This document shows positions 27,410-49,554 of a stretch of 53,590 nt of DNA, piece by piece (position 1 is the stretch's first letter; every line of letters begins with the position of its first letter). The notes under the pieces were generated by a model, which worked only from the letters and a program-made list of their open reading frames with translations, was not told the origin of the DNA and did no database searches. Source of the stretch: a virus (taxonomy: Duplodnaviria; Caudoviricetes); the IMG/VR virus record IMGVR_UViG_3300046804_003838, positions 1 to 53,590 of that record. One strand, 5' to 3'. The translations under genes and the position numbers were made by a program.

Positions 27410-28282
27410 TCAGTTATAATCGTCGTAATCTTCTTCGTCATCATAATCTTCAGCATAAGCCTCATCATCTTCGTCATCGTTCCATCCCCAATCATAATCG
27501 TTGTTATACTCCTCTTCATCATCATCTTCATAATCCACACCGCCATCTAGACTAGCCGAATAAAGAGGCTTGAGAAGTTCGCCTTGATACTCTCCGACAA
27601 CTTCATATCGGCAAGTGCGAAGTTTCTCATAATTACAATCACTAGGAACACTAACAACATCACGAGGATTAATCTTAACAATAACAATCTTATCGCCAGC
27701 CTCAAGACTACCATAACCAGCAACATAGTTCAATGCACCAGCATGAAGTCCATTAGAACAACCTCTAGCACGATCATCGTCAACCTTTGATCGTGTCATT
27801 TCGCAAACATTTCCAACATGATTGTCGAAAACTCCACGATACTTATCCATATAATCATTCCTAACTGCCTTATAGGCAAGAAAATGACCATCCTCAGTAA
27901 TTGGCAGATGTTCATGCTCAAGGAAATCATAAAGTTCCTTCTGACTCTGCATACTAGGATTTTCCATAAGATTATTCAGGAATGTAACAAGGGGCTGGAA
28001 AGGTAGACCCTTGCTCATAAACTCCAGAATACGCTTACTGATACTACCATGAACAACTTCACCCTCATAAGTGACCTGTCCATTCTTAATCTCAACAAGA
28101 CCGTCACTAAATGCCGCGACTGCCTTTTCTACATCCACAATCTCCAGCAATTCATCAGATGTTGCAGTAGGCAGAGCCTCCAGAATCATCTTATAGTTAA
28201 TATGATCAGGCAGAACCTGATAACTCTTGTTGTTTAGAACAACCGTCAGATTACCATCAACAAACATAAACGGAACAGCCAT
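27410..28282 (-). CDS. rIIB: rIIB-like protein
   Basis: NLMENPS...ELYDFL..LPITEDGHFLAYKAV, VDDDR...CSNGLH, KINPRDVVSVP.D..KLRTCRYEV; follows rIIA. Confidence 0.88.
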   Translation of the reverse strand: MAVPFMFVDGNLTVVLNNKSYQVLPDHINYKMILEALPTATSDELLEIVDVEKAVAAFSDGLVEIKNGQVTYEGEVVHGSISKRILEFMSKGLPFQPLVTFLNNLMENPSMQSQKELYDFLEHEHLPITEDGHFLAYKAVRNDYMDKYRGVFDNHVGNVCEMTRSKVDDDRARGCSNGLHAGALNYVAGYGSLEAGDKIVIVKINPRDVVSVPSDCNYEKLRTCRYEVVGEYQGELLKPLYSASLDGGVDYEDDDEEEYNNDYDWGWNDDEDDEAYAEDYDDEEDYDDYN

Positions 28283-28310
28283 AATTAAAACTCCTTGTTA
28301 CCTGTGAAAT

Positions 28311-30971
28311 TTACTTAATAAGACTACTCAACTGAATCTTGAACAGTTCAATCTGCTCATCATTCATACTTTCGACCCATATATTGCTACCCTTACCATA
28401 ATAATTATCAGCAAATTGAGAGATAGGATTATACTTGCTATCCAAATCTCTAAGATTGCCATTAATCTGGTTGCTTCCCATAATATACTTGATCATCGGG
28501 TTCCTGTCAACCTCGACTTTAAGATTTTTCTTGAGTTCTGCCATTTTGGTCAACTTATGCTTGATTGCTTTAGTCTCAGACTTAAACAATTTAACATACG
28601 ATTCAGCATCATCATGATGGGCAAACATCTCATGTTCAATCTTATTTACCAGAGTATTATACTGTACATTTTTCTTCTTGAGTTCCTTACTGTCAAGATT
28701 ATCAATGCCTCGATCCTTGAGCAAAGAGTTAATATGATCAAAATATTCAGTCTGAGAGAATCGCTTCAGATCAAAAGTTGCTCTGTGCATAGTATCAGCA
28801 AAGAATTCCATTACAAGAAAATTATCAATAACATTAGACAGTTCAGTATTCTTGATATATTTCTTATAGTCAAGACCAAAAATACTCAACATATGACAAG
28901 AAAATTGATTAACCAATGATCCGTGAATCCGATAATAGTTATGTTGATCATCATCTCTAGCAGCATACTCCTTTTTGTAGAATTCAACAATAGAGTTGTA
29001 TTCATTGGCACTATTGAAGTAGTCCTTAACATAAGTTGAAAGAATATTCTTTAGCCAAGTATTAAAGTCAGTAAGATTATATCCTTCATTTTGAAGTTTT
29101 GATACAAAATTACTCTTGATAGCATAAACCTTGACATTGCCAAATAGACTCTTGATATTTTCGTTACTAAACAATCCTACAATGTTACTAATCTTAGGAA
29201 ATTCTGGTGTGCTTTGATAACGCAAAATAGGAACGTAGATAATACTATCTTGGTCGATAAGTTCATCAAGTTCGTCACTCGTAAGAGTTTTCAGATTAAG
29301 AGCGTCATTATATTCTACACTAAGACTACCAGCATTTTTGGATGCTCCATTAATAAAGAATATATCTTGATCGCTAACACTACCCTTAGAATTTCTAACT
29401 CCAGTCTTTCTAGGCGAGTTGCTCTTAATCAAGTCCTTATAGTCGCTGACCTTCAGAATATTGTGACTACCAACATCTTCAATAAGTTTATCAAAACCCT
29501 CATTAGACTTTGAAATATCCTTACTGTCAATCATCAAGTAGGCAAAACAATCCTTCTCGTTACAATAACGAGTCACGATCTTCTTAGCGGTTTCTTCGCT
29601 CTTAATGTCACAAACAAAGAAAGCAAGTGGCCCAGTTTTACGCTGACTACTATAATAGTATTCACCCTTACCAGTAAGAGTATTATGGTGAAGATGATTG
29701 GTCATGTAAACCATGCGACGAGAACGATAGCCAGCACTTCTGTAGTTAAAAACATACAGAGCCTTTCCGGCAGGAATCTTATATTCAATATCCTCTCCGC
29801 TGTTGATATTGTGGGTCTTGCCATTACTATCGGTCCATGAAGCACCAACGCCCCATCCACCAGCAAGATCATTCAACTGATAATATGTACTGATTGCTTC
29901 GATTCTGGTTTTAGCAGCAGCAATCTTCTTGCTAAATTCTTCCTTCATCTCAAGATAAATACCCTGAGTCTTATCACGCAGGGCTTTAATGACAGCCTTG
30001 GTATACTGCAATCCTTCACGGGAAACATCCATCTCAAGTTCCCCGATACCAAAATCCAGTTCAAGATAAAGGTTCTGGTTAAGAATTTCTGTTACAAAAC
30101 TCTTCCAACTATCAATATCTGCCTTACCAAAGGCTCTATTCCACTTGGCAATATGCTCTGACTGTTCTACTTTTTGTTCTCCAACAAGTTGAGAGGCAAC
30201 AACAGGATACGCAATATTACCCATGAGAGCAACAATACCACTATCAATATGATGATATGTGCTAGGATAATGATTATGGTCATTAGAAAGTCGGCAGACC
30301 CTCCAACCTTCACCACTAATCACAATGTTCTTATTGCTATAAGCATGATCCTTGAGAGAAGGAATAACCCCACCTTCAATAATCGGCTTCATTCTAAAGT
30401 AATGAAAAATACGAATAGCCTTCTGACTAAATTCAGTAAAATCATACTGCTTAACAGCAAAACTAATCTCAAGACCATTAGGTTCGTCAGTTTCGCAGAC
30501 GTTAAACAGATTAAGAGTCGGCACACCATTATCATCAATGGCAGCAATATAAGTGTACTTTTGACCATTAAAATAAGAACTGGTCGTAAAACTCTTGGTA
30601 TAAGCAAAAGGACTCTTAGACCCTAGACCAAGACAACCAACAAAATCATTACTATCATTCTTGTTGGATGCACCATAGGTAGTGTAAAGGTTCTCCATAT
30701 CGGCCTGACTAAGACCAGTGCCGTAATCACGCACGATAAAATTCGGATTAGCAGCAGTAGGCAGCGTAACCTTAAAAGGATTCTTATTACCAGCACTAAT
30801 ATGACTGTCATAAGCATTGGTAGACAGTTCACGAATAACTGCCATCACCTTATCGGAATAAAGAGAGTCCGACAGAATCTTAAACATTTTGCTGGTTTGG
30901 GCAATCGTAAAACCCGACGCACTCTGAACACCAGCACTGTGAGTCTCAATAACACGGTCAGCCAACTTCAT
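28311..30971 (-). CDS. rIIA: rIIA-like protein (N-terminal GHKL ATPase)
   Basis: LSDSLYSDK.AVIRELSTNAYDSH, VRDYGTGLS, GCLGLGSKSPFAY, GEL....SRE.L. Confidence 0.88.
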   Translation of the reverse strand: MKLADRVIETHSAGVQSASGFTIAQTSKMFKILSDSLYSDKVMAVIRELSTNAYDSHISAGNKNPFKVTLPTAANPNFIVRDYGTGLSQADMENLYTTYGASNKNDSNDFVGCLGLGSKSPFAYTKSFTTSSYFNGQKYTYIAAIDDNGVPTLNLFNVCETDEPNGLEISFAVKQYDFTEFSQKAIRIFHYFRMKPIIEGGVIPSLKDHAYSNKNIVISGEGWRVCRLSNDHNHYPSTYHHIDSGIVALMGNIAYPVVASQLVGEQKVEQSEHIAKWNRAFGKADIDSWKSFVTEILNQNLYLELDFGIGELEMDVSREGLQYTKAVIKALRDKTQGIYLEMKEEFSKKIAAAKTRIEAISTYYQLNDLAGGWGVGASWTDSNGKTHNINSGEDIEYKIPAGKALYVFNYRSAGYRSRRMVYMTNHLHHNTLTGKGEYYYSSQRKTGPLAFFVCDIKSEETAKKIVTRYCNEKDCFAYLMIDSKDISKSNEGFDKLIEDVGSHNILKVSDYKDLIKSNSPRKTGVRNSKGSVSDQDIFFINGASKNAGSLSVEYNDALNLKTLTSDELDELIDQDSIIYVPILRYQSTPEFPKISNIVGLFSNENIKSLFGNVKVYAIKSNFVSKLQNEGYNLTDFNTWLKNILSTYVKDYFNSANEYNSIVEFYKKEYAARDDDQHNYYRIHGSLVNQFSCHMLSIFGLDYKKYIKNTELSNVIDNFLVMEFFADTMHRATFDLKRFSQTEYFDHINSLLKDRGIDNLDSKELKKKNVQYNTLVNKIEHEMFAHHDDAESYVKLFKSETKAIKHKLTKMAELKKNLKVEVDRNPMIKYIMGSNQINGNLRDLDSKYNPISQFADNYYGKGSNIWVESMNDEQIELFKIQLSSLIK

Positions 30972-31015
30972 TGTTTTTCTCCAAAAATCCTGTGAATCGT
31001 TCCTGTGATGCTTCC

Positions 31016-31043
31016 ATCATACCATACGTTATCGGCTTGTCAA
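31016..31043 (-). promoter_or_regulatory. early-type promoter of rIIA/B
   Basis: TTGACA-AGCCGATAACGTATGG-TATGAT (N16, TG extension). Confidence 0.75.
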
Positions 31044-31044
31044 G

Positions 31045-31601: not shown

Positions 31602-31652
31602 ATTTTATACTCCTGATAAAATTATAAATAATCTCTTTTTTATACACCACCA

Positions 31653-32487: not shown

Positions 32488-32767
32488 ATTTTTCTTTAAA
32501 CTCCTTTAAGTTGCAATATAATGGGATTAGAGTATTTTCGTCATGAAATCTATTATAGTGTAAAGTTAAATTATAAAAATCTCCACGATGATTAATGCTG
32601 GCCCAGGCAACATTTTGCATTTGTAAATCGTCTACTTGTTTTCGTAGTCTGTTAAGTTCATCTTTAGCATTGAGAATATTAAACTTGGTAAGAGTACAAT
32701 ATCCAGTATCAACTTCTGTTTCACAGCACTCTATAAGATGGTCAAGTGGATTTGAGTCTTGTTTCAT
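32468..32767 (-). CDS. hypothetical protein
   Basis: 99-aa coupled ORF. Confidence 0.6.
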   Translation of the reverse strand: MKQDSNPLDHLIECCETEVDTGYCTLTKFNILNAKDELNRLRKQVDDLQMQNVAWASINHRGDFYNLTLHYNRFHDENTLIPLYCNLKEFKEKYGKLSK

Positions 32768-33147
32768 TGGTTTTCTTCATCCTTCATTAGATACTCTATT
32801 GCTCTCCATAATCTTTCTTTATCATGATTAAAATTACCTATTGCCCTATTGCAATTATGGCATAAATGACCTCTAAATTTATCTGTTTGATCATTATGGT
32901 CTGCTGCCCATGTTCCTGCTCGTCCTCCAGTACCAGTTAAATCATGTTCTTTTCTATGGCATATAGGACAATAATAATCGTCTGGAGGATTCCCTGATTC
33001 TTCTTTAATTTTTTTACGAATTTTTGCTAACTTATAAGCACATTGTCTACATTCTGGTCTTTTATATTTTCCTCCGCCAGAAGGAGAAAAACATGATATG
33101 TCTAATTCTAGATGACACTTATTACATTTCTTAGTTTGTTTAGACAT
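32764..33147 (-). CDS. endonuclease VII-like protein
   Basis: CxxC...CxxC, CPIC, DH..T..FRGHLCHNCNRAIG. Confidence 0.8.
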   Translation of the reverse strand: MSKQTKKCNKCHLELDISCFSPSGGGKYKRPECRQCAYKLAKIRKKIKEESGNPPDDYYCPICHRKEHDLTGTGGRAGTWAADHNDQTDKFRGHLCHNCNRAIGNFNHDKERLWRAIEYLMKDEENQ

Positions 33148-33152
33148 AAATA

Positions 33153-33368
33153 TCAGACAAATCCGATTTTAGTTTTTTCTGCTACTGTAACTTCAATATC
33201 ATTGGATGAAAAGTGTTGTGTTGTATAAGAGCGACTGTTCCACCAGCCACATTCATAATTAACATTATTATCTCCAGTGATATGGATTCCAATAATAGTT
33301 GCATAAACATCATCAGCCAATTTGACCTTGCTGCCAATCTTATATAGTTCCAGAGTATTTTTGCTCAT
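33153..33368 (-). CDS. small SH3-like hypothetical protein
   Basis: KIGSKVKL...YECGWW. Confidence 0.6.
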   Translation of the reverse strand: MSKNTLELYKIGSKVKLADDVYATIIGIHITGDNNVNYECGWWNSRSYTTQHFSSNDIEVTVAEKTKIGFV

Positions 33369-33445
33369 TTATTTTCCTTGTTCTTAAAAGGTTTTGGTGT
33401 ATATCTATACTAGCGTTTGCTTTTTGAATGTCAAGAGGAGCGATT

Positions 33446-33904
33446 ATGAATAATAAAAATCATTATACAAAAGAAAATTTATCTAAAATTTGTTCAGAAT
33501 CTTTTAGTTATCGTCAATGTCTACAAAAAATGAATATCGCTCCAGCAGGAGGAAACTATGCCTGTCTAAAGAAACATATTAAATTGTATGATATTGATAT
33601 TTCTCATTTTACTTTACAGGGTTGGAATAAAGGTCAAAAATTAGGTCCAAAAAGATCTATTCAAGATTATCTTTCTAATAAACAAACTATACAAAGTTGG
33701 AAACTTAAAAAAAGACTAATCAAAGAACAAATTTTTGAACACAAATGTAATAACTGTAAACAAAAAACTTGGCTTAATCAAGTTATTCCTATTGAATTAC
33801 ATCATAAAGACTGTAATAATTTAAATAATACTTTATCCAATCTTGAATTACTTTGTCCTAACTGTCATGCTTTAACTGACAACTATCGTGCAAAAAATAA
33901 ATAG
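33446..33904 (+). CDS. free-standing HNH homing endonuclease
   Basis: Only credible plus-strand gene; GAGGAG SD before ATG 33446; CNNC...ELHHKD.N..NN...NL.LLCPNCH; stop abuts tRNA-Leu 3' end. Confidence 0.85.
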   Translation: MNNKNHYTKENLSKICSESFSYRQCLQKMNIAPAGGNYACLKKHIKLYDIDISHFTLQGWNKGQKLGPKRSIQDYLSNKQTIQSWKLKKRLIKEQIFEHKCNNCKQKTWLNQVIPIELHHKDCNNLNNTLSNLELLCPNCHALTDNYRAKNK

Positions 33905-34182
33905 TGGGGCTTGTGGGAATCGAACCCACATGGATTTCTCCGAGGGATTTTCTTACTACTATAGTTTTCACTACCCTTTCGGTTTGTAGTCTGGACTTTA
34001 TCTTAACCATAATTTTCATTTTAGGTTCCTGCCGTCAAGTCTCTACACCTTCATATTTCTATGCTTGGCTCGGTATTAGCAGTTAAGCCTTCACCGAATT
34101 TGACAGGTTCTACTATAAAGATTTCTCCTTATGCACTCAAATTGTATAAGTCCCTTGCGTCTGCCTGTTTCGCCAAAGCCCC
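33905..34182 (-). tRNA. trnL: tRNA-Leu(UAA), split by group I intron
   Basis: Exon 1 34182-34148 GGGGCTTTGGCGAAACAGGCAGACGCAAGGGACTT; exon 2 33951-33905 AAAATCCCTCGGAGAAATCCATGTGGGTTCGATTCCCACAAGCCCCA; GGGGCTT/AAGCCCC acceptor; long variable arm; spliced loop CU-UAA-AA; no encoded CCA. Confidence 0.92.
33952..34147 (-). mobile_element. group I intron (IC3-like, 196 nt, no ORF) in the tRNA-Leu anticodon
   Basis: Inserted after U34; ends in G; core elements CAAATTCGGTGAAG, GCTAATACCGAGCC, GTAGAGACTTGACG, AAGATAAAGTCC resemble trnL(UAA) introns. Confidence 0.88.
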
Positions 34183-34193
34183 ATTAAAGTAAC

Positions 34194-34259: not shown

Positions 34260-34273
34260 ATCACTTATGATTG

Positions 34274-34555
34274 TCAACCGTTAGAATTAGCCTTGATCCT
34301 ACGAACCACTTCAGCCATAGCCTCGACATTATCCACTGTCTTAACTGGCTTTGCACGTTCCATAGTAGGAAGTTCAATACCCTTTTCCTTGAGAGCCTCC
34401 TTAGTACGAGCATATCGTGCCATTGTAGAAGCCACCTTCTGTCCAGTCTTGCTAGCAATCTCAGCATAAGTTCTGGAAGAATAAACAGCCTCAAGAAACT
34501 GCTCATCAGAGCAACGGACACGACTCTGCTTCTCAACCGTATTAACTTCACCCAT
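34274..34555 (-). CDS. small probable DNA-binding (HTH-like) early protein
   Basis: GGAGG SD before ATG 34555; TYAEIASKTG; no TTA or ATA codons. Confidence 0.7.
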   Translation of the reverse strand: MGEVNTVEKQSRVRCSDEQFLEAVYSSRTYAEIASKTGQKVASTMARYARTKEALKEKGIELPTMERAKPVKTVDNVEAMAEVVRRIKANSNG

Positions 34556-34632
34556 AATCAACCTCCAAATCATTTCCAATTATTATCAATTTGAGTCAGT
34601 CACGCGACTGATTGCCTCTCATTGACTCCTTC

Positions 34633-34771: not shown

Positions 34772-34773
34772 AA

Positions 34774-35478
34774 TTAATCCTCAAGAACAAAACTCCAGTA
34801 TCGACTATCTTCCTTCTTTTGCAGGGCATCCCAGTAGATCGACCGTGCAATATACGATGGAATCTTATTTTTACCACAATTAACCATCCAATGTCTCTCC
34901 ATCTTCTTATACATGGTAGAGCCGCTCTTGCTCTTATTATACTTCAAATGTTCCATATCGTAAAGTCGCAATTGATGAATATCTCCACACAATACTCGTG
35001 CCTCATTAGGATGGATCATTTCAAGAGCAAAACTAATTTTAGCCAGACCAATCCCACTGATCTTACTCAGAATACTGTCACGCTTCTTAACATGACCCTT
35101 CTTTGAAGTAAAATAAAAATCCTTTGGATTAGCCCAAAACTTCTGAGAAAAATCCCAAATATAATTAGTACGATTGTTATGAAGTCCTACTCCGCTCTTG
35201 TGAAGTTTATTTAGCAGAGTTTCCTTGCTGTCAATCCATTCGTTAAAGTTCTTGATGGCACTATATCCTGCACAATTGCCCTTCCATGTAGTATGAACGC
35301 TGCAATAGGCAAAAAGATAGCGACGAAAAATATCATCATTATTTTGAGGACGAACACTTTCCCAATATTCCTTGTAAGAAACTACCTTGTCTCGCGGAAA
35401 AGTTTCAAAGAAAATATCGGCCTTGCTCTTGTCCATAACATTCTTAATCGGTTCAGCGACAGTATTCTCAACAATCAT
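34774..35478 (-). CDS. HhH-GPD superfamily DNA glycosylase-like protein (Ogg-like)
   Basis: HhH motif ISGIGLAKISFAL followed by conserved Asp in CGDIHQLR; GGAGA SD before ATG 35478. Confidence 0.55.
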   Translation of the reverse strand: MIVENTVAEPIKNVMDKSKADIFFETFPRDKVVSYKEYWESVRPQNNDDIFRRYLFAYCSVHTTWKGNCAGYSAIKNFNEWIDSKETLLNKLHKSGVGLHNNRTNYIWDFSQKFWANPKDFYFTSKKGHVKKRDSILSKISGIGLAKISFALEMIHPNEARVLCGDIHQLRLYDMEHLKYNKSKSGSTMYKKMERHWMVNCGKNKIPSYIARSIYWDALQKKEDSRYWSFVLED

Positions 35479-35506
35479 AGTTTTCTCCAAAAGCGTGTAT
35501 GCTACG

Positions 35507-35535
35507 ATTCTACATTAGAGAGATCGGCTTGTCAA
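35507..35535 (-). promoter_or_regulatory. early-type promoter
   Basis: TTGACA-AGCCGATCTCTCTAATG-TAGAAT (N17). Confidence 0.7.
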
Positions 35536-36038
35536 GTACGCAAATTTAGTTTTTCTAAACGCCGGTTGTATCCTTCGATTCTTGTCATAATATTATTATA
35601 TTTAACGTGCAGTTCTGGAGTAGTGTCTCTATAATCATACTTATGTAATTGTGATAGTCTTGCATTGTCTCCAAAAACTAAAATATTTTTATTATTTAAT
35701 TGAATGGTTGAAATATCCGTATCAATCATATTTTGAGATTTAATCATAAAATCTATTTGATAAGTATTATAAATATATCTATGCAATAAATGTCCATCAT
35801 TTATATTCTTAAAAGAAGCAGTTCGTGTCAATGTATTTAATGGATCGTCTTTATTTATTTTCGCTTTATTACGGACACTCCAATACATATCATGTTCTAT
35901 AATAAAATCGAAATCTTGTACAAATTCATAATTTATATTAAAAAAATCAGCACAACTACCAGTTAGAATACATTTATAATTAAATATAAAAGAAACATAT
36001 TCAACTATATTATAAATTTCTTCTTTAGAAAGAATCAT
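35532..36038 (-). CDS. nucleotidyltransferase-like protein
   Basis: LTGS...DFD pol-beta-type motif. Confidence 0.5.
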   Translation of the reverse strand: MILSKEEIYNIVEYVSFIFNYKCILTGSCADFFNINYEFVQDFDFIIEHDMYWSVRNKAKINKDDPLNTLTRTASFKNINDGHLLHRYIYNTYQIDFMIKSQNMIDTDISTIQLNNKNILVFGDNARLSQLHKYDYRDTTPELHVKYNNIMTRIEGYNRRLEKLNLRT

Positions 36039-37339
36039 ACATCCCTACGAACTCCATGCAAAATCTTGAATGTGGGAAATCTTAAACTAATTCCACCATC
36101 TTGGTTTTTAGTTTCCTCAAAATATTGAACCGTGATAATTTTTCCAAGAATTTTACATGGATTGCAATAGAACTCCTGTCTCTGGTCAATAGAGAAACCA
36201 CTACCAACACGAACAATATGTTCTTTATGCTTAATCATTACGCAAGAAAGCATAGTTTCCTCATGCTCCTTACCGTCCAGTACATATCTAAATGGTCCCA
36301 TTTCAACATCAACTACTTCATATTCATCATCATTGAAACTTTTAAATTTCAAGAGGTCTTTGGATCGCTTGCCTTTATATGGCTCGTCAGCACGAAGCAT
36401 AAGACCTTCCCAGCCATATTCTTTTGCTTTTGCTGTCCACTCAGAAAAGTGATCATCATCTTTGATAAGTTCTTGACCAAGAACACTAAGACAAGTACAA
36501 GTATTGTTCCTCATAACTTCTCTTAGATTATTATAGCGATGAGTATAAGTTTTATTCTTATCTCCTTTCTTACTATAAAATTCATCGTGGCTAATCATAT
36601 CAAAAATTTTATATGATGGATTAGTAATAGTATGATCCTTCTTTTTCAGTTGCTTCATAATGCCCTGAAAATCCTCATTACCTTCATCATCCACAAGACA
36701 AAGTTCACCATCAAAAACTACGTTAGTAATGCCCAGATTCTTGATGCCAGTAGCAACAATATCAAGAGTATCAAACTCTTTTCCCGTACGGGAATAAAAG
36801 GTAGTGTTCCCGCTATTATCAACAATAGCAACGCATCTAGCACCATCAATCTTTCTGCTAACATACCAACTATCCTTCCAATGTACAAGTTTAGGCTCAT
36901 ACTTATCTGCCAGAGCAACACTAAACTCTGGAATATGGTCAGGAATAGCCTTATTAATAATCTTGTCACCAGCACGGGTTTTCAAATCTTTATCAACAAT
37001 ACAATAAATTAGTTGACTGAATTCATTATTCTCAATAAAAGTATTAACAGCACCAATAGCGTCGTGACCAGTAATCTTTCGATTTTTTAGATCATCAAGA
37101 AGGTCAAAAAGATTCTTATATTCTTTTCCGCGAAGATGACTTTTCTTTTGCAGATTATCGCTGGTCACATTATATTGCCAAAGCGGATGATAAGTATACA
37201 ACAAAATTTTCTTAGCAAAATTTGCTGACGATGTATTTTTACCACAATATTCTAGAATGATACCTTCCTTATCTTTTGTACTACTGGTATCTCTAAGGTC
37301 GCTAACCATGTTCCAAACATAATTAAAATCGTGAATCAT
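36035..37339 (-). CDS. lig: ATP-dependent DNA ligase
   Basis: KIDGAR, FDGE, FD, EGLMLR, LLKFK, VGSGF, SLRFP. Confidence 0.95.
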   Translation of the reverse strand: MIHDFNYVWNMVSDLRDTSSTKDKEGIILEYCGKNTSSANFAKKILLYTYHPLWQYNVTSDNLQKKSHLRGKEYKNLFDLLDDLKNRKITGHDAIGAVNTFIENNEFSQLIYCIVDKDLKTRAGDKIINKAIPDHIPEFSVALADKYEPKLVHWKDSWYVSRKIDGARCVAIVDNSGNTTFYSRTGKEFDTLDIVATGIKNLGITNVVFDGELCLVDDEGNEDFQGIMKQLKKKDHTITNPSYKIFDMISHDEFYSKKGDKNKTYTHRYNNLREVMRNNTCTCLSVLGQELIKDDDHFSEWTAKAKEYGWEGLMLRADEPYKGKRSKDLLKFKSFNDDEYEVVDVEMGPFRYVLDGKEHEETMLSCVMIKHKEHIVRVGSGFSIDQRQEFYCNPCKILGKIITVQYFEETKNQDGGISLRFPTFKILHGVRRDV

Positions 37340-38213: not shown

Positions 38214-38255
38214 ATTTATTAGTAATTAAGTTATACTAATAAATACACTATTTAA

Positions 38256-38611
38256 TGGAGGCGAGGGGAGTCGAACCCCTGTCTTATCATAATCTCAAGA
38301 ATATCTTCTACAAGTTTATTTCATTCATAAATTAAACTAGAATATAGAACGAACAAGATTTTTCTAGTCTTACCAACTGCTCTTAACCTACAACCCGTTG
38401 GATATTGTAAGTGCAGAGGGATTTAACGACAGACTTTTGATTCCTACCCTCATTCGGTATCGCAGTCTGTTACTGCCCTTTTTTTGTCAGGCAGCAAGTG
38501 CTAACTGAGTTTCGCCAGTTAAAGCGTTTAATCGACTTTTAAAGTGGCCTGTCGATCAACCACTACTTGCTAATACAATCTTAATTATGTAATCGAATCC
38601 GTTACGCCCCC
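38256..38611 (-). ncRNA. ssrA: tmRNA
   Basis: 5' GGGGGCGTAACGGATTCGA; 3' GGGGTTCGACTCCCCTCGCCTCCA with G3:U70; pk1-like region; tag frame 38516-38487 GGC GAA ACT CAG TTA GCA CTT GCT GCC TGA = (A)GETQLALAA. Confidence 0.93.
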
Positions 38612-39002: not shown

Positions 39003-39084
39003 ATATTGTTCTCATTAAAGGTAGGAGAGAAACAACCTTGCTTCTCTATAAGGAGGGACAATATGTATTACACCATTTGATAAA

Positions 39085-39158
39085 TAGGGCGTGTAGGAGT
39101 CGAACCTACCTTTTGAATACCTTATAAGAGTATGTGCAACTACCGGCTGCAACGCCCC
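39085..39158 (-). tRNA. trnI: tRNA-Ile(UAU)
   Basis: GGGGCGT/ACGCCCT acceptor; ATACT-CT-TAT-AA-GGTAT anticodon arm; GTAGG-TTCGACT-CCTAC T-arm; short atypical D-loop; no CCA. Confidence 0.85.
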
Positions 39159-39190
39159 AAATTTTTAAAGATCAATCACCGTCTACCAGC

Positions 39191-39235: not shown

Positions 39236-39442
39236 CTAGTCGTTGTGGTATAAATTCTTTAAATTCCTTATTTCTTCTTGATATTTTTGAATATTATTAT
39301 ACATCTCATTACAACTCACACAAAAATCTGATGAGATATATGCCTTGCAGTCATGTATTTTATCTTCAAGATCCCGTATCTTTCTTCTTATTTCTTCGTT
39401 TGATGGATTTGTCATTGGTTTTCTTTCTTTTTTCTTTAACAT
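39236..39442 (-). CDS. hypothetical coiled-coil protein
   Basis: Track ORF; true start may be the internal MTNP. Confidence 0.55.
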   Translation of the reverse strand: MLKKKERKPMTNPSNEEIRRKIRDLEDKIHDCKAYISSDFCVSCNEMYNNIQKYQEEIRNLKNLYHND

Positions 39443-39776
39443 CTGTCAAAGGATTTGCCCAAAAAACCATTTCATTACTTTCATTATCCCAAGCACACTG
39501 AATCAAATCTTGAGCCGCAAGTTTTGCCAGCCCAACATTGTTGATCCATGTTACTGTAGACTCCCAAATTTGTTCATTAGTTTCTTCATTAAGAAGTGGT
39601 CTATCATTATCATCAAAACCTATGCAGTTTTCTTCAATGATAGAAATCATCTGCTTCAGATTAATATAGGCATCAAGATCGTCATCGCAATCATCTGAAA
39701 TAGCATTGGCGGCGGCTTGCCTCATCTCTGTGGCATATCCTTCAATATTCGTAATAGCATAGACTTCGTTGTCCAT
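39366..39776 (-). CDS. hypothetical protein (paralog of 26495..26908)
   Basis: LAKLAAQDLIQCAWDNESNEMVFW; GGAGA SD. Confidence 0.65.
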   Translation of the reverse strand: MDNEVYAITNIEGYATEMRQAAANAISDDCDDDLDAYINLKQMISIIEENCIGFDDNDRPLLNEETNEQIWESTVTWINNVGLAKLAAQDLIQCAWDNESNEMVFWANPLTDVKEKRKKTNDKSIKRRNKKKDTGS

Positions 39777-39790
39777 TTTATTTCTCCAAA

Positions 39791-40060
39791 TTAGATATAT
39801 TTAGATACACCTTTGTCGGACCCATTAAACAATTTGTCCTCTATACGATGAAGAGTATAATCCATACTATATTCTCCACGAGGAAGATATTGAGTATTAT
39901 CTTTTAGGGCTGTTTTGATTTGAGGTATCCAATGTTGTGACGCAACAGCGTACTCTTCTGGAAAGTTTACTCCAAGTATAGCCTTAATTTCAGCCAAATT
40001 ATTCTCAATTTGTTCTCTATATGAGTAGAGTTTAGAGAGAGCCTCATTTTGATTACTCAT
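39791..40060 (-). CDS. hypothetical protein
   Basis: 89-aa coupled ORF. Confidence 0.6.
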   Translation of the reverse strand: MSNQNEALSKLYSYREQIENNLAEIKAILGVNFPEEYAVASQHWIPQIKTALKDNTQYLPRGEYSMDYTLHRIEDKLFNGSDKGVSKYI

Positions 40061-40464
40061 ACGATATTCTCTTTCTGTTTGAGTTTGATCAACTTATGTT
40101 TGGTTTTCCAAACTCCAGTTTCTTTATTTTGAATATCTCCACCCATATAAATATGACAGAATCCAGCACTCTTGTCAATACCCCAGGCAAGAATACCATG
40201 CTTGTCAACACCCTCAACCACAAATCGTCCTCTATAACCCATAGGAATAAATTCGCCCTTACTGACAAAGTATGGGCCTCCGGTCACTTTGATACGATCA
40301 CCCTTAACTAGTTCACGCCAATTAACATTTTGAATAATTTTGGTATTCTTTGCTTCTTTGCTTTTAGGCTTGAAGCAAAAAACGTGATTACATTTCGAGC
40401 AACAATATGCTCGCGGTCCAGTTTCATGCGAACAATTCGGACAAGTTTTCTTACCTTTGGGCAT
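40057..40464 (-). CDS. zinc-ribbon early protein
   Basis: MPKGKKTCPNC...CSKC; no TTA or ATA codons. Confidence 0.7.
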   Translation of the reverse strand: MPKGKKTCPNCSHETGPRAYCCSKCNHVFCFKPKSKEAKNTKIIQNVNWRELVKGDRIKVTGGPYFVSKGEFIPMGYRGRFVVEGVDKHGILAWGIDKSAGFCHIYMGGDIQNKETGVWKTKHKLIKLKQKENIV

Positions 40465-40491: not shown

Positions 40492-40519
40492 AGTATACAT
40501 CAGTTATCGGCGTTGTCAA
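40492..40519 (-). promoter_or_regulatory. early-type promoter
   Basis: TTGACA-ACGCCGATAACTGATG-TATACT. Confidence 0.75.
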
Positions 40520-40752: not shown

Positions 40753-40965
40753 TTAAACAGTCTCCATATTTGTGTTAGAGGTATCAATACTCAGAGAAAT
40801 CTTATTGTCGGGCATCTGAATAAAATCAGTAGAATAATAATCCAAAGTTTCCCAATCAAATACTTGTACATTTTCTTGCCAAGGAAAACTACCGGGATTA
40901 CTAATATCGTTTGCTCTTTCATAAAGAAAGTTATATAAATCTAACCAAGTCATTTTATTTTTCAT
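40753..40965 (-). CDS. hypothetical protein
   Basis: 70-aa coupled ORF. Confidence 0.6.
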   Translation of the reverse strand: MKNKMTWLDLYNFLYERANDISNPGSFPWQENVQVFDWETLDYYSTDFIQMPDNKISLSIDTSNTNMETV

Positions 40966-41180
40966 CTGGCTCTCCTATTTGCCCTATCAAGAATACGGAT
41001 AGTTTGTGTTGCATTTGATGGGACCATAACAAGACTAGGGGCGGTTTTATGTCCCCAATCCATAAATCCAACAGCACGATTTTCGACACTACAATCTTTA
41101 CAAATAATTTTGCGACCAGTTTCTACGAGAAACTCGTAGCGATCAATACCAACACAGTTTTTGCAGTAAATGCAGTTCAT
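40962..41180 (-). CDS. DksA/TraR-like C4 zinc-finger protein
   Basis: CIYC...I.R.E.L.....CKDC spacing; GGAGG SD. Confidence 0.55.
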   Translation of the reverse strand: MNCIYCKNCVGIDRYEFLVETGRKIICKDCSVENRAVGFMDWGHKTAPSLVMVPSNATQTIRILDRANRRAR

Positions 41181-41199: not shown

Positions 41200-41227
41200 A
41201 TTATACCATCATCATCGGCATTGTCAA
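41200..41227 (-). promoter_or_regulatory. early-type promoter
   Basis: TTGACA-ATGCCGATGATGATGG-TATAAT, overlapping the last codons of the deaminase. Confidence 0.75.
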
Positions 41228-41772: not shown

Positions 41773-41919
41773 TTATTTAGAGGCTAACATATATAAACCA
41801 ACATTAGCAAAAGCATAACCAATATAAGTAATTAACATACCAATATTTCCTTTGTACCCTTGTTCAGCAGCGACATAAAGGTAGCAACAACCAGTGAAAG
41901 CAATTAGCCAAGCACTCAT
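41773..41919 (-). CDS. small membrane protein (48 aa)
   Basis: Manual: MSAWLIAFTGCCYLYVAAEQGYKGNIGMLITYIGYAFANVGLYMLASK; ATGA overlap with uvsE. Confidence 0.7.
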   Translation of the reverse strand: MSAWLIAFTGCCYLYVAAEQGYKGNIGMLITYIGYAFANVGLYMLASK

Positions 41920-42830
41920 ACATTTACTCCTTCAATAATGTGTTTATATTTTTCAATAGCATAATCTTTCATCTTTAATTCCATATCTACATCAAAATCT
42001 AACCCATAGTTATTAAATGGATTTTCAGCATAATCAGCATGAGCCCTTGGATTATTGCCGATTCTACTTTCACTATAATGAAAAAGCGGACGAGTTTGCC
42101 AAGTGTCATAGCACATATTAATAGCCTCAACTTCTGTCAAGTTATTAGGATGACACTTATGATGAAGATAATCGAAACAAATTGGAATACGAGTAATAGG
42201 ATGAAAAATATCTACAAGTTCACGAACACTCCAGCAATTAAGTTTATCATCATTTTCTATAGTAAGCCTTGCTTGACAATTTTCATCAAGTTTCTTAAAA
42301 TTCTGATAAAAACGATGGCTAATTTCTTCTCTAGTTCCATTATTATTATGAACGTGTAGGTTCATTGGGCTGAGAGTATTTGCTGGCAAACCGATTCTAT
42401 CGAAGAAACTGCTGTAGAAATTGAGTTCTGTGATTGTTTTTTCCACAACTTTATCGGAGAGACTTGAGAGTGAATTAAATTCACTAGGATGACAAGACAC
42501 ACGAACATTAGTATTGGTAATAGTTTGTGCAATATTATCAAACTCATCTTGAATTTCATCATGATTAGGCAAATCTTCTAACGAAACATTTGCTGCATCA
42601 TAAGTAATAAGCGGGAAAATATCGCTACTAACACGATAAACATAATTATTCTGTCCGCAAAATTCAATAGTTTTACGAGTGGTGACAAGATTATTAAAAA
42701 TCCTATCTCCAAGAATCGTCAAGGATTCTTCTCGCGGCAGAGAATTGAATCGTTTAAAAGTCATGGTCTGATGACCAATATCTTGTTCTTTAAGTTTGAG
42801 GCTAATGCAGCACAGACCGTACTTATTCAT
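41916..42830 (-). CDS. uvsE: UV-damage endonuclease
   Basis: GLCCI, YRVSSDIFP, HP, NLHV, TIENDD, FDYLHH, FHYS, AHADY, ELKMKD; start moved to ATG 42830. Confidence 0.9.
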   Translation of the reverse strand: MNKYGLCCISLKLKEQDIGHQTMTFKRFNSLPREESLTILGDRIFNNLVTTRKTIEFCGQNNYVYRVSSDIFPLITYDAANVSLEDLPNHDEIQDEFDNIAQTITNTNVRVSCHPSEFNSLSSLSDKVVEKTITELNFYSSFFDRIGLPANTLSPMNLHVHNNNGTREEISHRFYQNFKKLDENCQARLTIENDDKLNCWSVRELVDIFHPITRIPICFDYLHHKCHPNNLTEVEAINMCYDTWQTRPLFHYSESRIGNNPRAHADYAENPFNNYGLDFDVDMELKMKDYAIEKYKHIIEGVNV

Positions 42831-42848
42831 AATTTCTCCGTTTGTAGC

Positions 42849-42876
42849 AGTATATCTCATTATCGGCTACTGTCAA
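42849..42876 (-). promoter_or_regulatory. early-type promoter of uvsE
   Basis: TTGACA-GTAGCCGATAATGAGA-TATACT. Confidence 0.75.
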
Positions 42877-43931: not shown

Positions 43932-43937
43932 AATATT

Positions 43938-45987: not shown

Positions 45988-46096
45988 TCTACACTGTACC
46001 ATTCTTCAAATTCCATAAGATATATTTCGGCAAATGGTTCATTCGATCCATTGATTATATTACCTAATATTGGTAGTTCTTTGTCTTCATTCATAT

Positions 46097-47155
46097 TCAA
46101 TCAATATTTCCTAATACTTCTCCGTCATTAGGATCACACAATCTTCTAATAATGCTAACATCAGAATCACCGTTAATAGTTCGAACACTACCATCAGCAA
46201 ATCCTGCCATAGCCATATCGCCAGCATGAAAACTAAATGGCTCATCATTAGGGCCACAATTATTTGTTGTCCAAAGACAAGTAGTTGGGCCACCAATAGG
46301 ATTGCTATTATTGTTTACTATTTTTCTTCCATTTGTTACAGTTTCGGTATCTGGACTTCCACTAACTCCACTAGAATTATCTGGATCAGCCCATCTATTT
46401 GGAACAGTATTACCTGATGGAAATTCTGTGGCGTTTGCTGCTACCCAATTAGAATCTCCGGATTGAATATTAACTGCTTTTCCTCCTGCTGACCTAATCC
46501 AATTAGTATTTCCACCCAATTGAGTTTGTCTTTTACCAAGATGTTGAGTATTTCTTCCAGCATCTTCAAAAAATATGACAGTTTTGCTTGTACCATCTTT
46601 TGCATGAGATACTCTTGAAGATTGATCGTATGTTAACAATCCAGACTTATAAGAATTTCGTGTTGTTCCAGAAGCCTTATTTCTACTTCCATTAGTAGGA
46701 TGAAGGTCAGTATATGCTACTGGCATATAATCATTTGACCCATAATCGCCGCCAGTTTTAGCATCAGAATAAGGATTACTTGGACAATTAAAAGCGTTAA
46801 CCTTTGCTCCTGCTAAAGTTTTATTAGTTTGATGCCAATATGGTTTCTTTTTGTCCCAATTTGATGCTAGTGATGATTCTTCCATAAAACCTAATACTTG
46901 AACATGAAAAGACTCTACATTTAGGCAATCTTTTCCAATGCTAAAATCGAATCCTTCTCCGCTAGTTGGGTATCTGCTATTTGCACTTTCATAATTAGCG
47001 GCTGCTAATCCTATTTGTCGTACATTATTTGAACAGGCACTTCTTCGTGCTGCTTCTCTGGCCGATTGAACTGCTGGTAGGAGTAGTCCTATTAAAGTGG
47101 CTATAATAGCAATAACGACTAATAGTTCTACTAATGTAAACGCTTTTCTACTCAT
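46097..47155 (-). CDS. DUF1559 prepilin-type N-terminal cleavage/methylation protein (Planctomycete family)
   Basis: RKA|[52 protein letters not shown]...FADGSV; start moved to ATG 47155. Confidence 0.92.
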
Positions 47156-47178
47156 TATAAATTCCTTTTTAGGCGGGA

Positions 47179-47235
47179 TGTATAGAATTCTGATTATATT
47201 TGTCAATATTATACTAAAAATAGTGATATTGTCAA
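47179..47235 (-). promoter_or_regulatory. tandem sigma70-like promoters of DUF1559 gene
   Basis: TTGACA-N16-TATAAT (47235-47208), then TTGACA-N16-TATACA (47206-47179). Confidence 0.6.
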
Positions 47236-47238
47236 GGA

Positions 47239-47427
47239 CTAATTAAGTCTATAATTTTTATTATATTTTCTGGCAGGATCACGCCTTTTTGGTTTACTAT
47301 GATGAGTGATTCTTATTGTTTGTTCAACAGTATAAGGATACATATCATTATACATAACAGGCACTGTTTGTGCAACAAGAGGTTTAGATTGAGTAAAGTT
47401 ATCCCAGAGTTCTTTAAATAAATTCAT
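47239..47427 (-). CDS. hypothetical protein
   Basis: 62-aa coupled ORF. Confidence 0.5.
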
Positions 47428-47642: not shown

Positions 47643-48268
47643 AAATCCTTTCGTATATTAATAAGACTAATAAGCATTTTGTTATCTTCCTCATACCACT
47701 TATCTAGTTCAGGATTTTTACGTTTTGGTCTTTTCTCTGTCCACCAAACATACAAACGCTTAATCTCTTTGCAACTTTTTGCGAAAGGAGTTAGTTTGCC
47801 TTTATACTTATATTTCATTCCCCAATCTAAATAATCCAATCCGGCTTGTTTACATGATCCATTCTTGAATTTGTAAAGATGTTTAACTTGTTTGGGTTTT
47901 CCATAAATCCAAGCACATTCTGTCTCGACAAAAATTACCAATTCATTAAATAAACCATGAAGAATCCTATAATCTAGATCATAGTATTCTCCTGGCTTTA
48001 ATCCAGTGTGCAAGTAATGAAGTTTATCAACATAACGATTATTAATATAAGTCTTTATTGTATGATAAAGATCATATGGATAATATATTGTATTCTGTAA
48101 CTTTTTTAAACCAGTTTCAGCAATCCAATATCGTACAGGATGTTTTTGTTTTGCGGATTTGTGCCAACTGTCCCATTCGTTCCACCCAAGAGCAGGTGGT
48201 TTTTTGGTTCCTCTAATAAAATCAGCGAACTTTGAGCAAGTCCAGTGATGAAAACGTGGTCTAATCAT
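47633..48268 (-). CDS. hypothetical phage protein
   Basis: 211 aa, Trp-rich; FNELVIFVETE, GLDYLDW. Confidence 0.7.
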   Translation of the reverse strand: MIRPRFHHWTCSKFADFIRGTKKPPALGWNEWDSWHKSAKQKHPVRYWIAETGLKKLQNTIYYPYDLYHTIKTYINNRYVDKLHYLHTGLKPGEYYDLDYRILHGLFNELVIFVETECAWIYGKPKQVKHLYKFKNGSCKQAGLDYLDWGMKYKYKGKLTPFAKSCKEIKRLYVWWTEKRPKRKNPELDKWYEEDNKMLISLINIRKDLWT

Positions 48269-48334
48269 ATATGAATATTAATTTTCTTCAAGAAATATAT
48301 TAGTGTTCGTGCCAGTATAATCCCCAGGCTAACC

Positions 48335-48475
48335 TCAAATATTTTGGATAGACTCAGGTATAACATAACTCTTTGACTTTCTTTGGTATCCTAGAAATAC
48401 TTGGCTAGTTATAACCCCCATACCGGCTACGAGGGTTACAACTATGCCAACTATAAATATGGCAAAATTGCTCAT
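48335..48475 (-). CDS. small membrane protein (46 aa)
   Basis: Manual: MSNFAIFIVGIVVTLVAGMGVITSQVFLGY...; ATGA overlap. Confidence 0.6.
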   Translation of the reverse strand: MSNFAIFIVGIVVTLVAGMGVITSQVFLGYQRKSKSYVIPESIQNI

Positions 48476-48630
48476 TTCAGCAAATTCCCCAGACTAAGAA
48501 TACTGGGAACCCACAGGCCCACAAAAATAGCCTGATGCTTATTTACGTCAGCATCTCCCAAGAACCATAGCGTAACACTAAAAACAAAACTACCAAAAGC
48601 CGCCAATAGAAAATAATTCTCACTCTTCAT
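48472..48630 (-). CDS. small two-TM membrane protein
   Basis: SVTLWF...AIFVGLWVPSIL; start moved to ATG 48630. Confidence 0.6.
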   Translation of the reverse strand: MKSENYFLLAAFGSFVFSVTLWFLGDADVNKHQAIFVGLWVPSILSLGNLLK

Positions 48631-48652
48631 AAGTAAATCAACCTTTCTTAAT

Positions 48653-48835
48653 TTAAGTTCTAATTTCTCTGAGTATTTTTCGTGCCAACGCAGCACCACC
48701 CACTATCCTTCCTTCTGTATAATCGTCCAAACCATACCCAACGGTACTTTCTCTTTTCTTCTGTTTCTCTATTGCTTCAAGACACAATTTTTCCACAGTA
48801 AGTTTAAGTTGATCGTACTGTTTTGTATTTTTCAT
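48653..48835 (-). CDS. hypothetical protein
   Basis: 60-aa coupled ORF. Confidence 0.55.
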   Translation of the reverse strand: MKNTKQYDQLKLTVEKLCLEAIEKQKKRESTVGYGLDDYTEGRIVGGAALARKILREIRT

Positions 48836-49233
48836 TCTTGTACCATTTGTCCATCACGAACATTATAATAAACCACCTTACCAGATGATCTAATATATGC
48901 TCGTCCACCATCAATCATATTTCCGCTATGAAAACTTTTATAATCGTGATGAAATTGAGAATACTGTAAATCTCCATCATCATCTTCTACCATAGCAAAA
49001 GTTAGTTTTTCTACATCATCAGCATTACCAATATAAATTTTACCATCATGCACTCTTATAGAAAAGTATCTATTACCAAATGATGGATGAGGAGTTTCTC
49101 TATAAAAAATATCTGCTGGACTATCATCACTATTTAAATCGGTGGTGCAAACATAGGTGATTGGAACATTGTCTTTTTGAGAATAATGCTCAATTACTTT
49201 ATTAATATCGGTAATAGGAAAATGCCTAATCAT
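48832..49233 (-). CDS. hypothetical phage protein
   Basis: PHPSFGNRYF, YS..HDY, MIDGGRAY. Confidence 0.7.
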   Translation of the reverse strand: MIRHFPITDINKVIEHYSQKDNVPITYVCTTDLNSDDSPADIFYRETPHPSFGNRYFSIRVHDGKIYIGNADDVEKLTFAMVEDDDGDLQYSQFHHDYKSFHSGNMIDGGRAYIRSSGKVVYYNVRDGQMVQE

Positions 49234-49346
49234 TTAATTTTATTGCTTCCTTTGATATATTTTGGAATATAGGGGCAATTTAAACATTTTCGCCCACAAC
49301 ATTCTCCTCTACTAATTAAAAATTCTCTAGTTAACGGTTGGCTCAT
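49230..49346 (-). CDS. DUF5522-like Cys-rich mini-protein (38 aa)
   Basis: Manual: MSQPLTREFLISRGECCGRKCLNCPYIPK...; RG.CCG..C..CPY motif; ATGA overlap. Confidence 0.7.
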   Translation of the reverse strand: MSQPLTREFLISRGECCGRKCLNCPYIPKYIKGSNKIK

Positions 49347-49554
49347 CTTTGTATCCATCAAGTTTATAAACCTGAGTAAAAGTATCAAACAACTTATCAG
49401 TATGAAGTTTGAGCATAACTGCTAGACCATCAATAGCATTAACAATTTCGTCATTTGTCATACCAATTTCAAGAACTCCATAACTAATATCATTAAGAGT
49501 ATCGACAAAATGATAAGTCTGATTGATTTTATTTTCCAAATCGAAGCGATCCAT
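49327..49554 (-). CDS. hypothetical early protein
   Basis: AAGGAG SD before ATG 49554 (MDRFDLE); no TTA or ATA codons. Confidence 0.65.
   Translation of the reverse strand: MDRFDLENKINQTYHFVDTLNDISYGVLEIGMTNDEIVNAIDGLAVMLKLHTDKLFDTFTQVYKLDGYKDEPTVN

Follow-up and report, generated by a model that had tools for sequence, protein, structure and literature searches.

The 53,590-bp viral record IMGVR_UViG_3300046804_003838, analyzed here over its entire length and referred to as the window, contains genes that are practically free of the codons TTA and ATA next to many others that use both heavily, and it also carries tRNA genes for these two codons. This raises the question why a phage that supplies its own tRNA-Leu(UAA) and tRNA-Ile(UAU) keeps the cognate codons out of some of its genes. 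According to an original prediction made from the letters of the sequence, early genes are read by host tRNAs and later genes by the phage tRNAs, which would thereby form a switch; the codon avoidance and its link to promoters were borne out by our analysis, while a deliberate switch was not. The explanation we favor, with a probability of roughly 0.6, combines compensation by the phage tRNAs with translational selection against codons for which the host is poorly equipped. The window has a GC content of 33%, almost every gene lies on the minus strand, and with a CheckV completeness of 39% and no structural genes it is the early/middle arm of a ~150-kb uncultured freshwater phage.

Codon counts were based on 104 open reading frames (ORFs), which are open under translation table 11 and were called by a longest-ORF heuristic that leaves some starts a few codons off (e.g. 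those of UvdE and the ORF starting at 49593). Across all 104 ORFs, TTA made up 36.7% of the leucine and ATA 35.6% of the isoleucine codons. In the 90 ORFs outside the depleted set the values were 44% (481/1097) and 42% (489/1174), with TTA as the commonest leucine codon of this pool, while rIIA, rIIB, the ligase gene and an Ogg-like gene together contained a single TTA among 139 leucine codons and two ATA among 123 isoleucine codons. This depletion is real and far beyond chance, since the binomial tails against the genome-wide rate were 4.7e-14 (TTA) and 1.6e-10 (ATA) for rIIA as well as 5.5e-6 (TTA) and 1.2e-6 (ATA) for the ligase. The larger depleted genes, all on the minus strand, were rIIA (28311-30971; PHROG 612 at 6e-111; 886 codons; TTA 0/67, ATA 2/66), which is the first gene behind the promoter at 31043, rIIB as the second gene after rIIA (27410-28282; PHROG 609 at 5e-72; TTA 0/25, ATA 0/10), the ATP-dependent DNA ligase (36035-37339; PHROG 114 at 2e-79; 434 codons; TTA 1/33, ATA 0/31), an Ogg-HhH glycosylase-like protein (34774-35490; Pfam PF22175, 31.1 bits vs a cut-off of 27; TTA 0/14-15, ATA 0/16) and the UV-damage endonuclease UvdE (41916-42860, with the true start probably near 42830; Pfam PF03851 at 3e-41; TTA 3/25, ATA 1/24). 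They were accompanied on the same strand by a small protein of no assigned family (34274-34579; TTA 0/4, ATA 0/5), three small genes within 39366-40464 (TTA 0/4, 0/8 and 0/8; ATA 0/10, 3/7 and 1/12), among them 40057-40464 with TTA 0/4 and ATA 0/10, and small genes at 40962-41180 (TTA 0/3, ATA 0/6) and 49327-49593 (ATG at 49554; TTA 0/8-9, ATA 0/5). Each gene that the original prediction had listed as free of TTA and ATA was indeed free of both, the few such codons in rIIA (ATA at codons 537 and 864) and the ligase (TTA at codon 419) were isolated and late as it had described, and the gene at 14398, which it had quoted for heavy use, does begin with ATG ATA AAC TAT ATT AAA AAC TTA. The ligase, the Ogg-HhH-like protein and UvdE place three DNA-repair enzymes inside this promoter-proximal set, which suggests repair of the injected genome as an immediate-early task.

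The depleted genes share their position directly behind strong promoters. The hexamer GCCGAT occurred 18 times in the window vs 6.4 times expected, a number reached by none of 100 shuffled sequences, and six copies on the minus strand (31031-31036, 35523-35528, 40506-40511, 41214-41219, 42862-42867 and 49586-49591) were each preceded by a perfect TTGACA at a distance of 1-3 nt and followed by a TATAAT-like box after 7-10 nt. Being placed between these two boxes, they add an element to the spacer of what are otherwise canonical sigma70-type promoters, and a regulator of early transcription may use this element as its operator. Promoters of this kind on the minus strand precede rIIA/rIIB (31016-31043, TTGACA-A-GCCGAT-N9-TATGAT), the Ogg-like gene (35535-35507), the genes at 39366-40464 (40519-40492), the gene at 40962-41180 (41227-41200), UvdE (42876-42849) and the gene at 49327-49593 (starting at 49600), while the promoter of the gene at 34274-34579 (34660-34633) contains the variant GTCGAT. 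Further intergenic promoters with a perfect TTGACA lie upstream of gene 33368 and gene 47206. The claim that the depleted genes are first or second behind GCCGAT-type promoters thus stood with regard to their promoter-proximal position and failed for the ligase, whose promoter (37392-37364) has a perfect TTGACA without GCCGAT. The ten protein genes that are first behind a promoter contained 22 TTA or ATA codons among 372 leucine and isoleucine codons, 15 of which came from one gene (46097-47206), compared to 936 of 2263 in the other 90 minus-strand genes (Mann-Whitney p 1.3e-6; none of 100000 permutations gave a value as low), and the association between depletion and promoter class is therefore one of the predicted features that held. 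The fractions of TTA and ATA climbed with gene rank after the promoter from 0.17/0.15 to 0.43/0.38. The ligase is followed by an overlapping gene with TTA 6/14 and ATA 7/19. Just after rIIB a terminator-like hairpin with a T run is present (27317-27335, minus strand), the sequence of which resembles a tRNA T-arm without having a match in Rfam. In the same position just after rIIB, the related complete genome described below (G001) has a primase-like gene for 380 aa (32509-33654), and none of the listed 300-nt blastn matches to the window covers this gene.

The avoidance concerns codons rather than nucleotide composition. In a class formed by nine promoter-first genes and rIIB, with the exceptional gene 46097-47206 left out, the ratios for in-frame TTA and ATA were 0.04 and 0.03, corresponding to a ~25- to 30-fold depletion, and those for the two other frames were 1.23 and 1.38 (TTA) as well as 1.02 and 0.61 (ATA). 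Since the depletion is frame-specific, the avoidance acts at translation. Avoidance of DNA or RNA motifs such as -10-like TATAAT sequences or AT-rich cleavage sites was ruled out, because out-of-frame TTA and ATA were not depleted. For the question of base composition we used a class defined by promoter position alone and thus independent of codon content. Here the frequency of T at third codon positions (T3) increased from 0.42 to 0.50 and that of A (A3) decreased from 0.37 to 0.21, while the GC content at these positions (GC3) changed only from ~0.21 to 0.29, which rules out GC3 as the cause. ATA (ratio 0.13) and TTA (0.16) were the most depleted A-ending codons of this class, followed by ACA (0.42), TCA (0.45), AAA (0.53), AGA (0.56), CTA (0.60), GTA (0.65), CCA (0.71), CAA (0.73), GCA (0.79), GGA (0.87) and GAA (0.92), and the same trend was present when the depleted set was compared with the remaining ORFs. 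The proposed control for GC3 and other A-ending codons hence removed GC3 as an explanation and revealed depletion of the other NNA codons as well, although less strongly. The one enriched codon of this type was CGA (1.68). CGA is the sole NNA codon that is read in bacteria by an inosine-containing tRNA-Arg instead of a tRNA with U at wobble position 34 (U34), and glutamate codons are usually served by a UUC tRNA only. Because CGA is spared while the U34-read NNA codons are under-used, the pattern looks like avoidance of codons with a dependence on U34 or lysidine tRNAs and not of A-ending codons as such.

The same partition recurs in related phages, in which the original prediction had proposed to repeat the comparison. 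A search with rIIA identified 69 related loci in IMG/VR, one of them in the 153,002-bp relative G001, which is rated 100% complete and is collinear with the window at ~81% nucleotide identity. Its 22 promoter-first genes contained TTA at 14/226 leucine and ATA at 11/223 isoleucine codons, while the remaining 198 genes had 1591/3600 and 1245/3549. The small genes that are clustered with many promoters at 144.9-151.9 kb (TTA 4/102, ATA 10/91) and the structural module on the opposite strand (TTA 789/1552, ATA 473/1378) followed this division. In all 42 rIIA loci examined, which represent about 27 distinct codon-count profiles, rIIA had at most 9% TTA and at most 9% ATA down to an amino-acid identity of 54%, while the pooled ORFs flanking rIIA ranged from 20-52% TTA and 14-50% ATA. 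At 54% identity synonymous sites have turned over, and selection therefore maintains the avoidance. The group to which these phages belong is distant from characterized ones. No near relative of the window was present among 50,697 deposited phage records, a megablast of 20 kb returned no match to a cultured relative, and in a tblastn search of cultured phages with rIIA all matches were below 60% identity with the best ones less than 40% identical. The capsid protein of G001 gave a weak match to Bacillus phage G only, and for a 728-aa structural protein no match was found in the search for cultured relatives.

Both tRNAs named in the original prediction are present. The tRNA-Ile(UAU) gene was detected by ARAGORN at 39084-39159 (minus strand), and a class II tRNA-Leu(UAA) gene was read from the sequence at 33905-34182 (minus strand) with a 5' exon of 35 nt and a 3' exon of 47 nt. 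The exons are separated after U34 by 196 nt that match the Rfam group I intron family RF00028 (33970-34157, 57.8 bits vs a gathering threshold of 50), so that the predicted intron fold lies in the anticodon loop directly after U34 and the element qualifies as a putative group I intron; in near-identical intron-bearing genes of relatives (e.g. L010 and L016) ARAGORN likewise sets the intron after the first anticodon base. Both genes are located behind perfect or near-perfect sigma70-type promoters like the presumed early genes, at 34277-34250 for tRNA-Leu(UAA), with a perfect TTGACA, and at 39218-39191 for tRNA-Ile(UAU), with a perfect sigma70 consensus. The assignment of the tRNAs to sigma70-type promoters was thereby confirmed, but not their separation into a promoter class of their own, as the GCCGAT element is also found in promoters of G001, including the one of its tRNA-Ile gene. 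Downstream of tRNA-Ile and two small ORFs a transfer-messenger RNA (tmRNA) with the tag GETQLALAA is encoded (38253-38611, minus strand; Rfam RF00023, 118 bits), and the promoter scan gave no strong match between tRNA-Ile and tmRNA. This tmRNA might rescue ribosomes stalled on scarce codons, which we offer as an idea only. Tag variants within the clade were GTNQLALAA, GNNQLALAA and GVNQLALAA.

Among the rIIA-linked loci surveyed for tRNAs (L003-L071), 43 had a tRNA(UAA) gene at a distance of 2-3 kb upstream of rIIA. Where the flank was long enough to include them, tRNA-Ile(UAU) was detected in 12 loci and the tmRNA in 23. Only 15 of the 43 tRNA(UAA) loci carry the intron, and self-splicing as a part of the proposed gate was accordingly abandoned. 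Bordering the intron-bearing gene of the window, an HNH endonuclease gene on the plus strand (33428-33904; PHROG 10822, 4e-38) abuts its 3' end and may encode a free-standing homing endonuclease related to the patchy occurrence of the intron. The tRNA(UAA) locus exists in two forms, the class II form of 82-87 nt seen in the window and a class I form that measures 74-76 nt, lacks a long variable arm and is carried by most relatives (e.g. L009:7277-7350), and either one can hold the intron. The class I form is a putative tRNA-Leu, and TTA still aligned with leucine codons. That the odd class I tRNA(UAA) reassigns a sense codon was ruled out by codon alignment of the window with G001, in which TTA stood opposite leucine codons at 85-88% and ATA opposite isoleucine codons at 79% of positions, comparable to the controls CTT (86-91%) and ATT (81-85%). 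One locus with a 95% identical rIIA (L004:257-330) has an unrelated tRNA with a CAU anticodon in the usual slot of tRNA-Ile(UAU), a candidate for a tRNA-Ile2 of the lysidine type or for an elongator tRNA-Met. The RNA genes of G001 are limited to Ile(UAU), Leu(UAA), Glu(UUC) and the tmRNA, while another relative, G002, encodes 12 tRNAs including readers of TTA, ATA, ACA, AAA, AGA, CAA and GAA, the last five of which match further NNA codons depleted in the early class.

Depletion is not confined to promoter-proximal genes. In the structural module of G001, the gene at 133374-134402 matches Gp27, the major capsid protein of Bacillus phage G (PDB 6wkk, 8e-10; tblastn 1e-6), and contains TTA at 3/36, ATA at 1/14 and AAA at 3/12 of the respective codons. 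Its orthologues in three other genomes were all depleted (TTA 3-4 of 35-38, ATA 1-2 of 15-18), and the gene for the single-stranded DNA-binding protein (SSB) had TTA 2/8 and ATA 0/6. When genes were ranked by a score of likeness to the early class that was built without any leucine or isoleucine codons, no structural gene other than that for the capsid reached the top 30, and SSB held rank 29; among 133 other genes the score correlated with the TTA+ATA fraction (rho -0.38, p 8e-6). Since a late capsid gene and SSB are depleted as well, expression demand matters and not timing alone. TTA and ATA appear to be poor codons throughout infection that were removed in proportion to the urgency or abundance with which a product is needed.

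Taken together, the genome is written in two codon dialects. The first comprises the leading gene, or the leading two genes, of units with strong host-type sigma70 promoters and has essentially no TTA or ATA, and the second is that of the rest of the genome, which is near its AT-rich mutational equilibrium with these codons at ~40% of leucine and isoleucine codons. Most probably the tRNA pool of the uninfected host serves TTA and ATA poorly, and these codons would have been purged from genes that need immediate translation before phage tRNAs build up, and also from genes made in bulk such as those for the major capsid protein and SSB. The tRNA-Leu(UAA), tRNA-Ile(UAU) and tmRNA, presumably made from the same early promoter type, would then make the AT-drifted bulk of the genome translatable. 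Any lag in the translation of TTA/ATA-rich genes would be a by-product and not a demonstrated switch.

Hints as to the host are mutually conflicting. Judged by the codons, NNT/NNC, NNG and CGA would be read well by the host and TTA and ATA badly. The exact tag GETQLALAA was found in the tmRNAs, all of them real tmRNA genes, of 8 of 185,579 GTDB species genomes, namely five Chloroflexota (loci of 50-69% GC), one Sumerlaeota, one Salibacteraceae and one other, while whole-tmRNA identity was uninformative, with 39-50% to all ten tmRNAs compared and 44-51% in an alignment of four sequences. Contigs of relatives have been binned into metagenome-assembled genomes (MAGs) of Chitinophagia (three contigs), Flavobacteriales and a Saccharibacteria-like organism, the EF-Tu of which is 84-87% identical to Saccharibacteria/Patescibacteria; these placements disagree with each other and probably reflect composition-driven binning. 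The Saccharibacteria-like MAG has 41-43% GC, and its EF-Tu gene contains TTA 3/26, ATA 0/28 and AAA 10/31. Correlation of relative synonymous codon usage (RSCU) between the phage and the highly expressed genes of two MAGs ranged from 0.32 to 0.77 and was not decisive. Shine-Dalgarno (SD)-like motifs were present upstream of 94 of 181 phage ATG genes vs a background of 9%. Bacteroidota use promoters and SD sequences in a way that does not fit TTGACA/TATAAT promoters and frequent SD-like motifs, and a Bacteroidota host was argued against on this basis. The GC-rich host assumed by the original prediction is neither shown nor excluded by these hints.

Several observations weigh against the explanation we favor. 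The gene at 46097-47206 (minus strand) stands behind a perfect promoter at 47235 and is nevertheless rich in both codons (TTA 8/22, ATA 7/20). The stretch 46082-47243 has no blastn match of at least 300 nt in G001 and is therefore probably an insertion with its own promoter. Some TTA-rich genes lie directly behind depleted ones, in part with overlapping stop and start codons, and the promoter scan gave no strong sigma70-type match between depleted genes and the TTA-rich genes behind them. Early timing itself is something we infer from the promoter consensus, and a shortage of Leu(UAA) and Ile2 tRNAs in the host is suggested by the codon choices of the phage. Within the structural genes the correlation with the early-likeness score was weak (rho -0.30, p 0.08, n=35). 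A phage with 33% GC would more usually infect an AT-rich host, and the Chitinophagia MAG (34-36% GC), with TTA at 21 of 28 leucine codons of its EF-Tu gene, would contradict the model if it were the host, while the Saccharibacteria-like MAG has a tRNA-Leu(UAA) of its own.

The strongest competing view, that of the original prediction, which we nonetheless regard as unlikely, holds that TTA and ATA are decoded so poorly by the host that TTA/ATA-rich mRNAs, including those transcribed jointly with early genes, remain silent until the phage tRNAs accumulate and that this delay was selected as an early-to-middle switch. Such a switch would be the sense-codon equivalent of bldA or of the stop-codon recoding of gut phages. 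It would account for a partition that is nearly binary and tied to the position within the transcription unit, as between the ligase and the gene overlapping it, for the rise of both codons with gene rank and for the conservation of the tRNAs across the clade. In addition, inspection by eye of 22 intergenic gaps, which did not include a formal motif search, revealed no motif shared by a second promoter class, and among phages there is a precedent for the idea that late genes can be timed by a difference in the code (bioRxiv 10.1101/2021.08.26.457843). However, the tRNA genes are located behind the same early promoter type, and nothing would therefore be expected to delay the tRNAs. Avoidance of TTA and ATA in the late capsid gene and SSB is also not what a pure delay predicts, and in most genes the two codons occur near AT-drift frequencies instead of being confined to a few regulators. 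It is equally doubtful that the two dialects form a built-in translational clock in which the tmRNA rescues stalled ribosomes, as a sense-codon analogue of stop-codon recoding that leaves the code unchanged. Under such a clock, immediate-early genes that ward off abortive infection, repair DNA and take over the host may be readable by the naive host, and the remaining ORFs, including those on the same transcripts, may be poorly translated until tRNA-Leu(UAA) and tRNA-Ile(UAU) have accumulated.

We consider it improbable that the pattern arose from counter-defence or host shut-off, in which U34 or lysidine tRNAs of the host are cleaved or lost, because the host deploys an anticodon nuclease or the phage destroys host nucleic acids, and the phage carries replacements and spares its critical genes. 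The under-use of all U34-dependent codons and not of CGA, which is read by I34 (inosine at position 34), would fit such a loss, as would the conserved tmRNA of the phage and the class I tRNA(UAA) in most relatives and the CAU in place of UAU in one, which suggest turnover of tRNA bodies, and both ideas are discussed for phage tRNAs in PMC12482277. Scanning 50 window proteins, on the other hand, identified no nuclease, tRNA-repair or tRNA-ligase gene among them, early genes would be translated before any tRNA loss so that their avoidance needs a separate explanation, and a late takeover by phage tRNAs predicts a capsid gene favoring TTA and ATA, while the actual one avoids both. That the depleted genes are recent imports from a GC-richer genome that have not yet drifted is hardly credible, as their GC content of 0.35-0.40 vs about 0.30 and the presence of repair enzymes with cellular homologues among them are outweighed by a pattern that is kept in rIIA/rIIB orthologues down to 54% amino-acid identity and hence old and actively maintained, that shifts from A3 to T3 more than to GC3, that is frame-specific, and that includes the phage-specific rII genes, small genes without a family match and a UvdE without a close cellular homologue, whose three confirmed matches in 185,579 genomes all derive from MAG-binned contigs of related phages.

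Selection against poorly served codons with compensation by phage tRNAs has parallels in known systems. T4 is a large lytic phage with rIIA/rIIB, U34-type tRNAs that include Leu(UAA) and an AUA-reading tRNA-Ile, and early promoters recognized by host sigma70, and codons read by its tRNAs are reportedly commoner in late than in early genes, as attributed to work of Cowe and Sharp in 1991 and Kunisawa in 1992. The phage studied here is alike in its rIIA/rIIB, its Leu(UAA) and AUA-reading tRNAs and the sigma70-type promoters of its putative early genes. It differs in that the split is near all-or-none (~0-2% vs ~40%) and keyed to individual promoters, in having two to three tRNAs, and, unlike T4, in belonging to a group unrelated to cultured phages. 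In Streptomyces, bldA is a tRNA-Leu(UAA) that gates development, accumulates late and reads a codon that is rare and found in few regulatory genes. Codon, tRNA and the idea that tRNA supply times TTA genes are the same in both cases, but in most genes of this phage TTA is the commonest leucine codon, without any genome-wide rarity (481/1097), and the tRNA gene has an early-type promoter. The comparison to a bldA-like gate in the original prediction thereby lost one defining feature, the rarity of TTA, which is present at ~40% of leucine codons in most genes.

T4-like cyanomyoviruses supplement a low-GC genome with U34 tRNAs that serve them in hosts of higher GC content (PMC3152331). In the part of that article available, they share with this phage an AT-rich genome, anticodons starting mostly with T and a proposed compensation for a host pool poor in NNA decoders, while no promoter-proximal class free of the tRNA-read codons is described there. 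Two hallmarks of such compensation are found here too, with cognate tRNAs present alongside frequent codons and under-use of these codons in genes inferred from their promoters to be early. Stop-codon recoding with phage suppressor tRNAs has been put forward as a possible timer of late genes (bioRxiv 10.1101/2021.08.26.457843). Recoding phages are similar insofar as early genes are readable by the naive host and later genes need a phage tRNA, but in the present clade no codon changes its meaning. For Shigella phage Sf14, late and structural genes were concluded to be the main users of the phage tRNAs, and gene groups differ in codon use, although with graded differences (tRNA adaptation index and RSCU), 26 tRNAs and a known host (PMC12482277). 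Differences between early and late codon use have been surveyed across phages (PMC5683454). No description of a near all-or-none avoidance specific to promoter position was found in the literature searched full-text, a search that leaves most subscription journals outside. Codon compensation by phage tRNAs is already known, and the sharp, promoter-keyed split is the new aspect.

Besides the rII, ligase and repair genes, thymidylate synthase, endonuclease VII, clamp loader, ribonucleotide reductase, a glycosyltransferase and a dehydrogenase were recognized in the window. The region 1-27339 (minus strand) is occupied by bulk middle-type genes with heavy use of TTA and ATA, including those for ribonucleotide reductase, clamp loader, glycosyltransferase, dehydrogenase and others. 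Within it, a 197-aa protein without a family match (11526-12119, minus strand) is encoded in a unit of its own, and a hairpin with a T run lies downstream. Its gene has ATA 0/10, the G001 orthologue TTA 1/13, ATA 0/6 and AAA 1/11, and the product may be an abundant middle protein. The structural module of G001 (L092, L093) encodes giant proteins of 2254, 1862 and 3169 aa (86178-92945, 92935-98526 and 104413-113925), and four of five structural-module proteins scanned had no match among PHROGs.

Why phages carry tRNAs is still argued, with compensation, host range, replacement after host shut-off and escape from tRNA nucleases under discussion, and this clade offers an unusually clean contrast, with two to three tRNAs and an avoidance that is near all-or-none, frame-specific, promoter-keyed and conserved. 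It becomes predictable which ORFs would stall without the phage tRNAs and which codons, those read by U34 and not CGA, the host would read poorly, and Lys(CUU) and Gln(CUG) tRNAs are predicted in the host. The codon pattern could mark immediate-early genes in uncultured phages from sequence alone and could serve to fingerprint the host. If the delay in translating TTA/ATA-rich genes is functional, the choice of sense codons alone can set the timing of translation.

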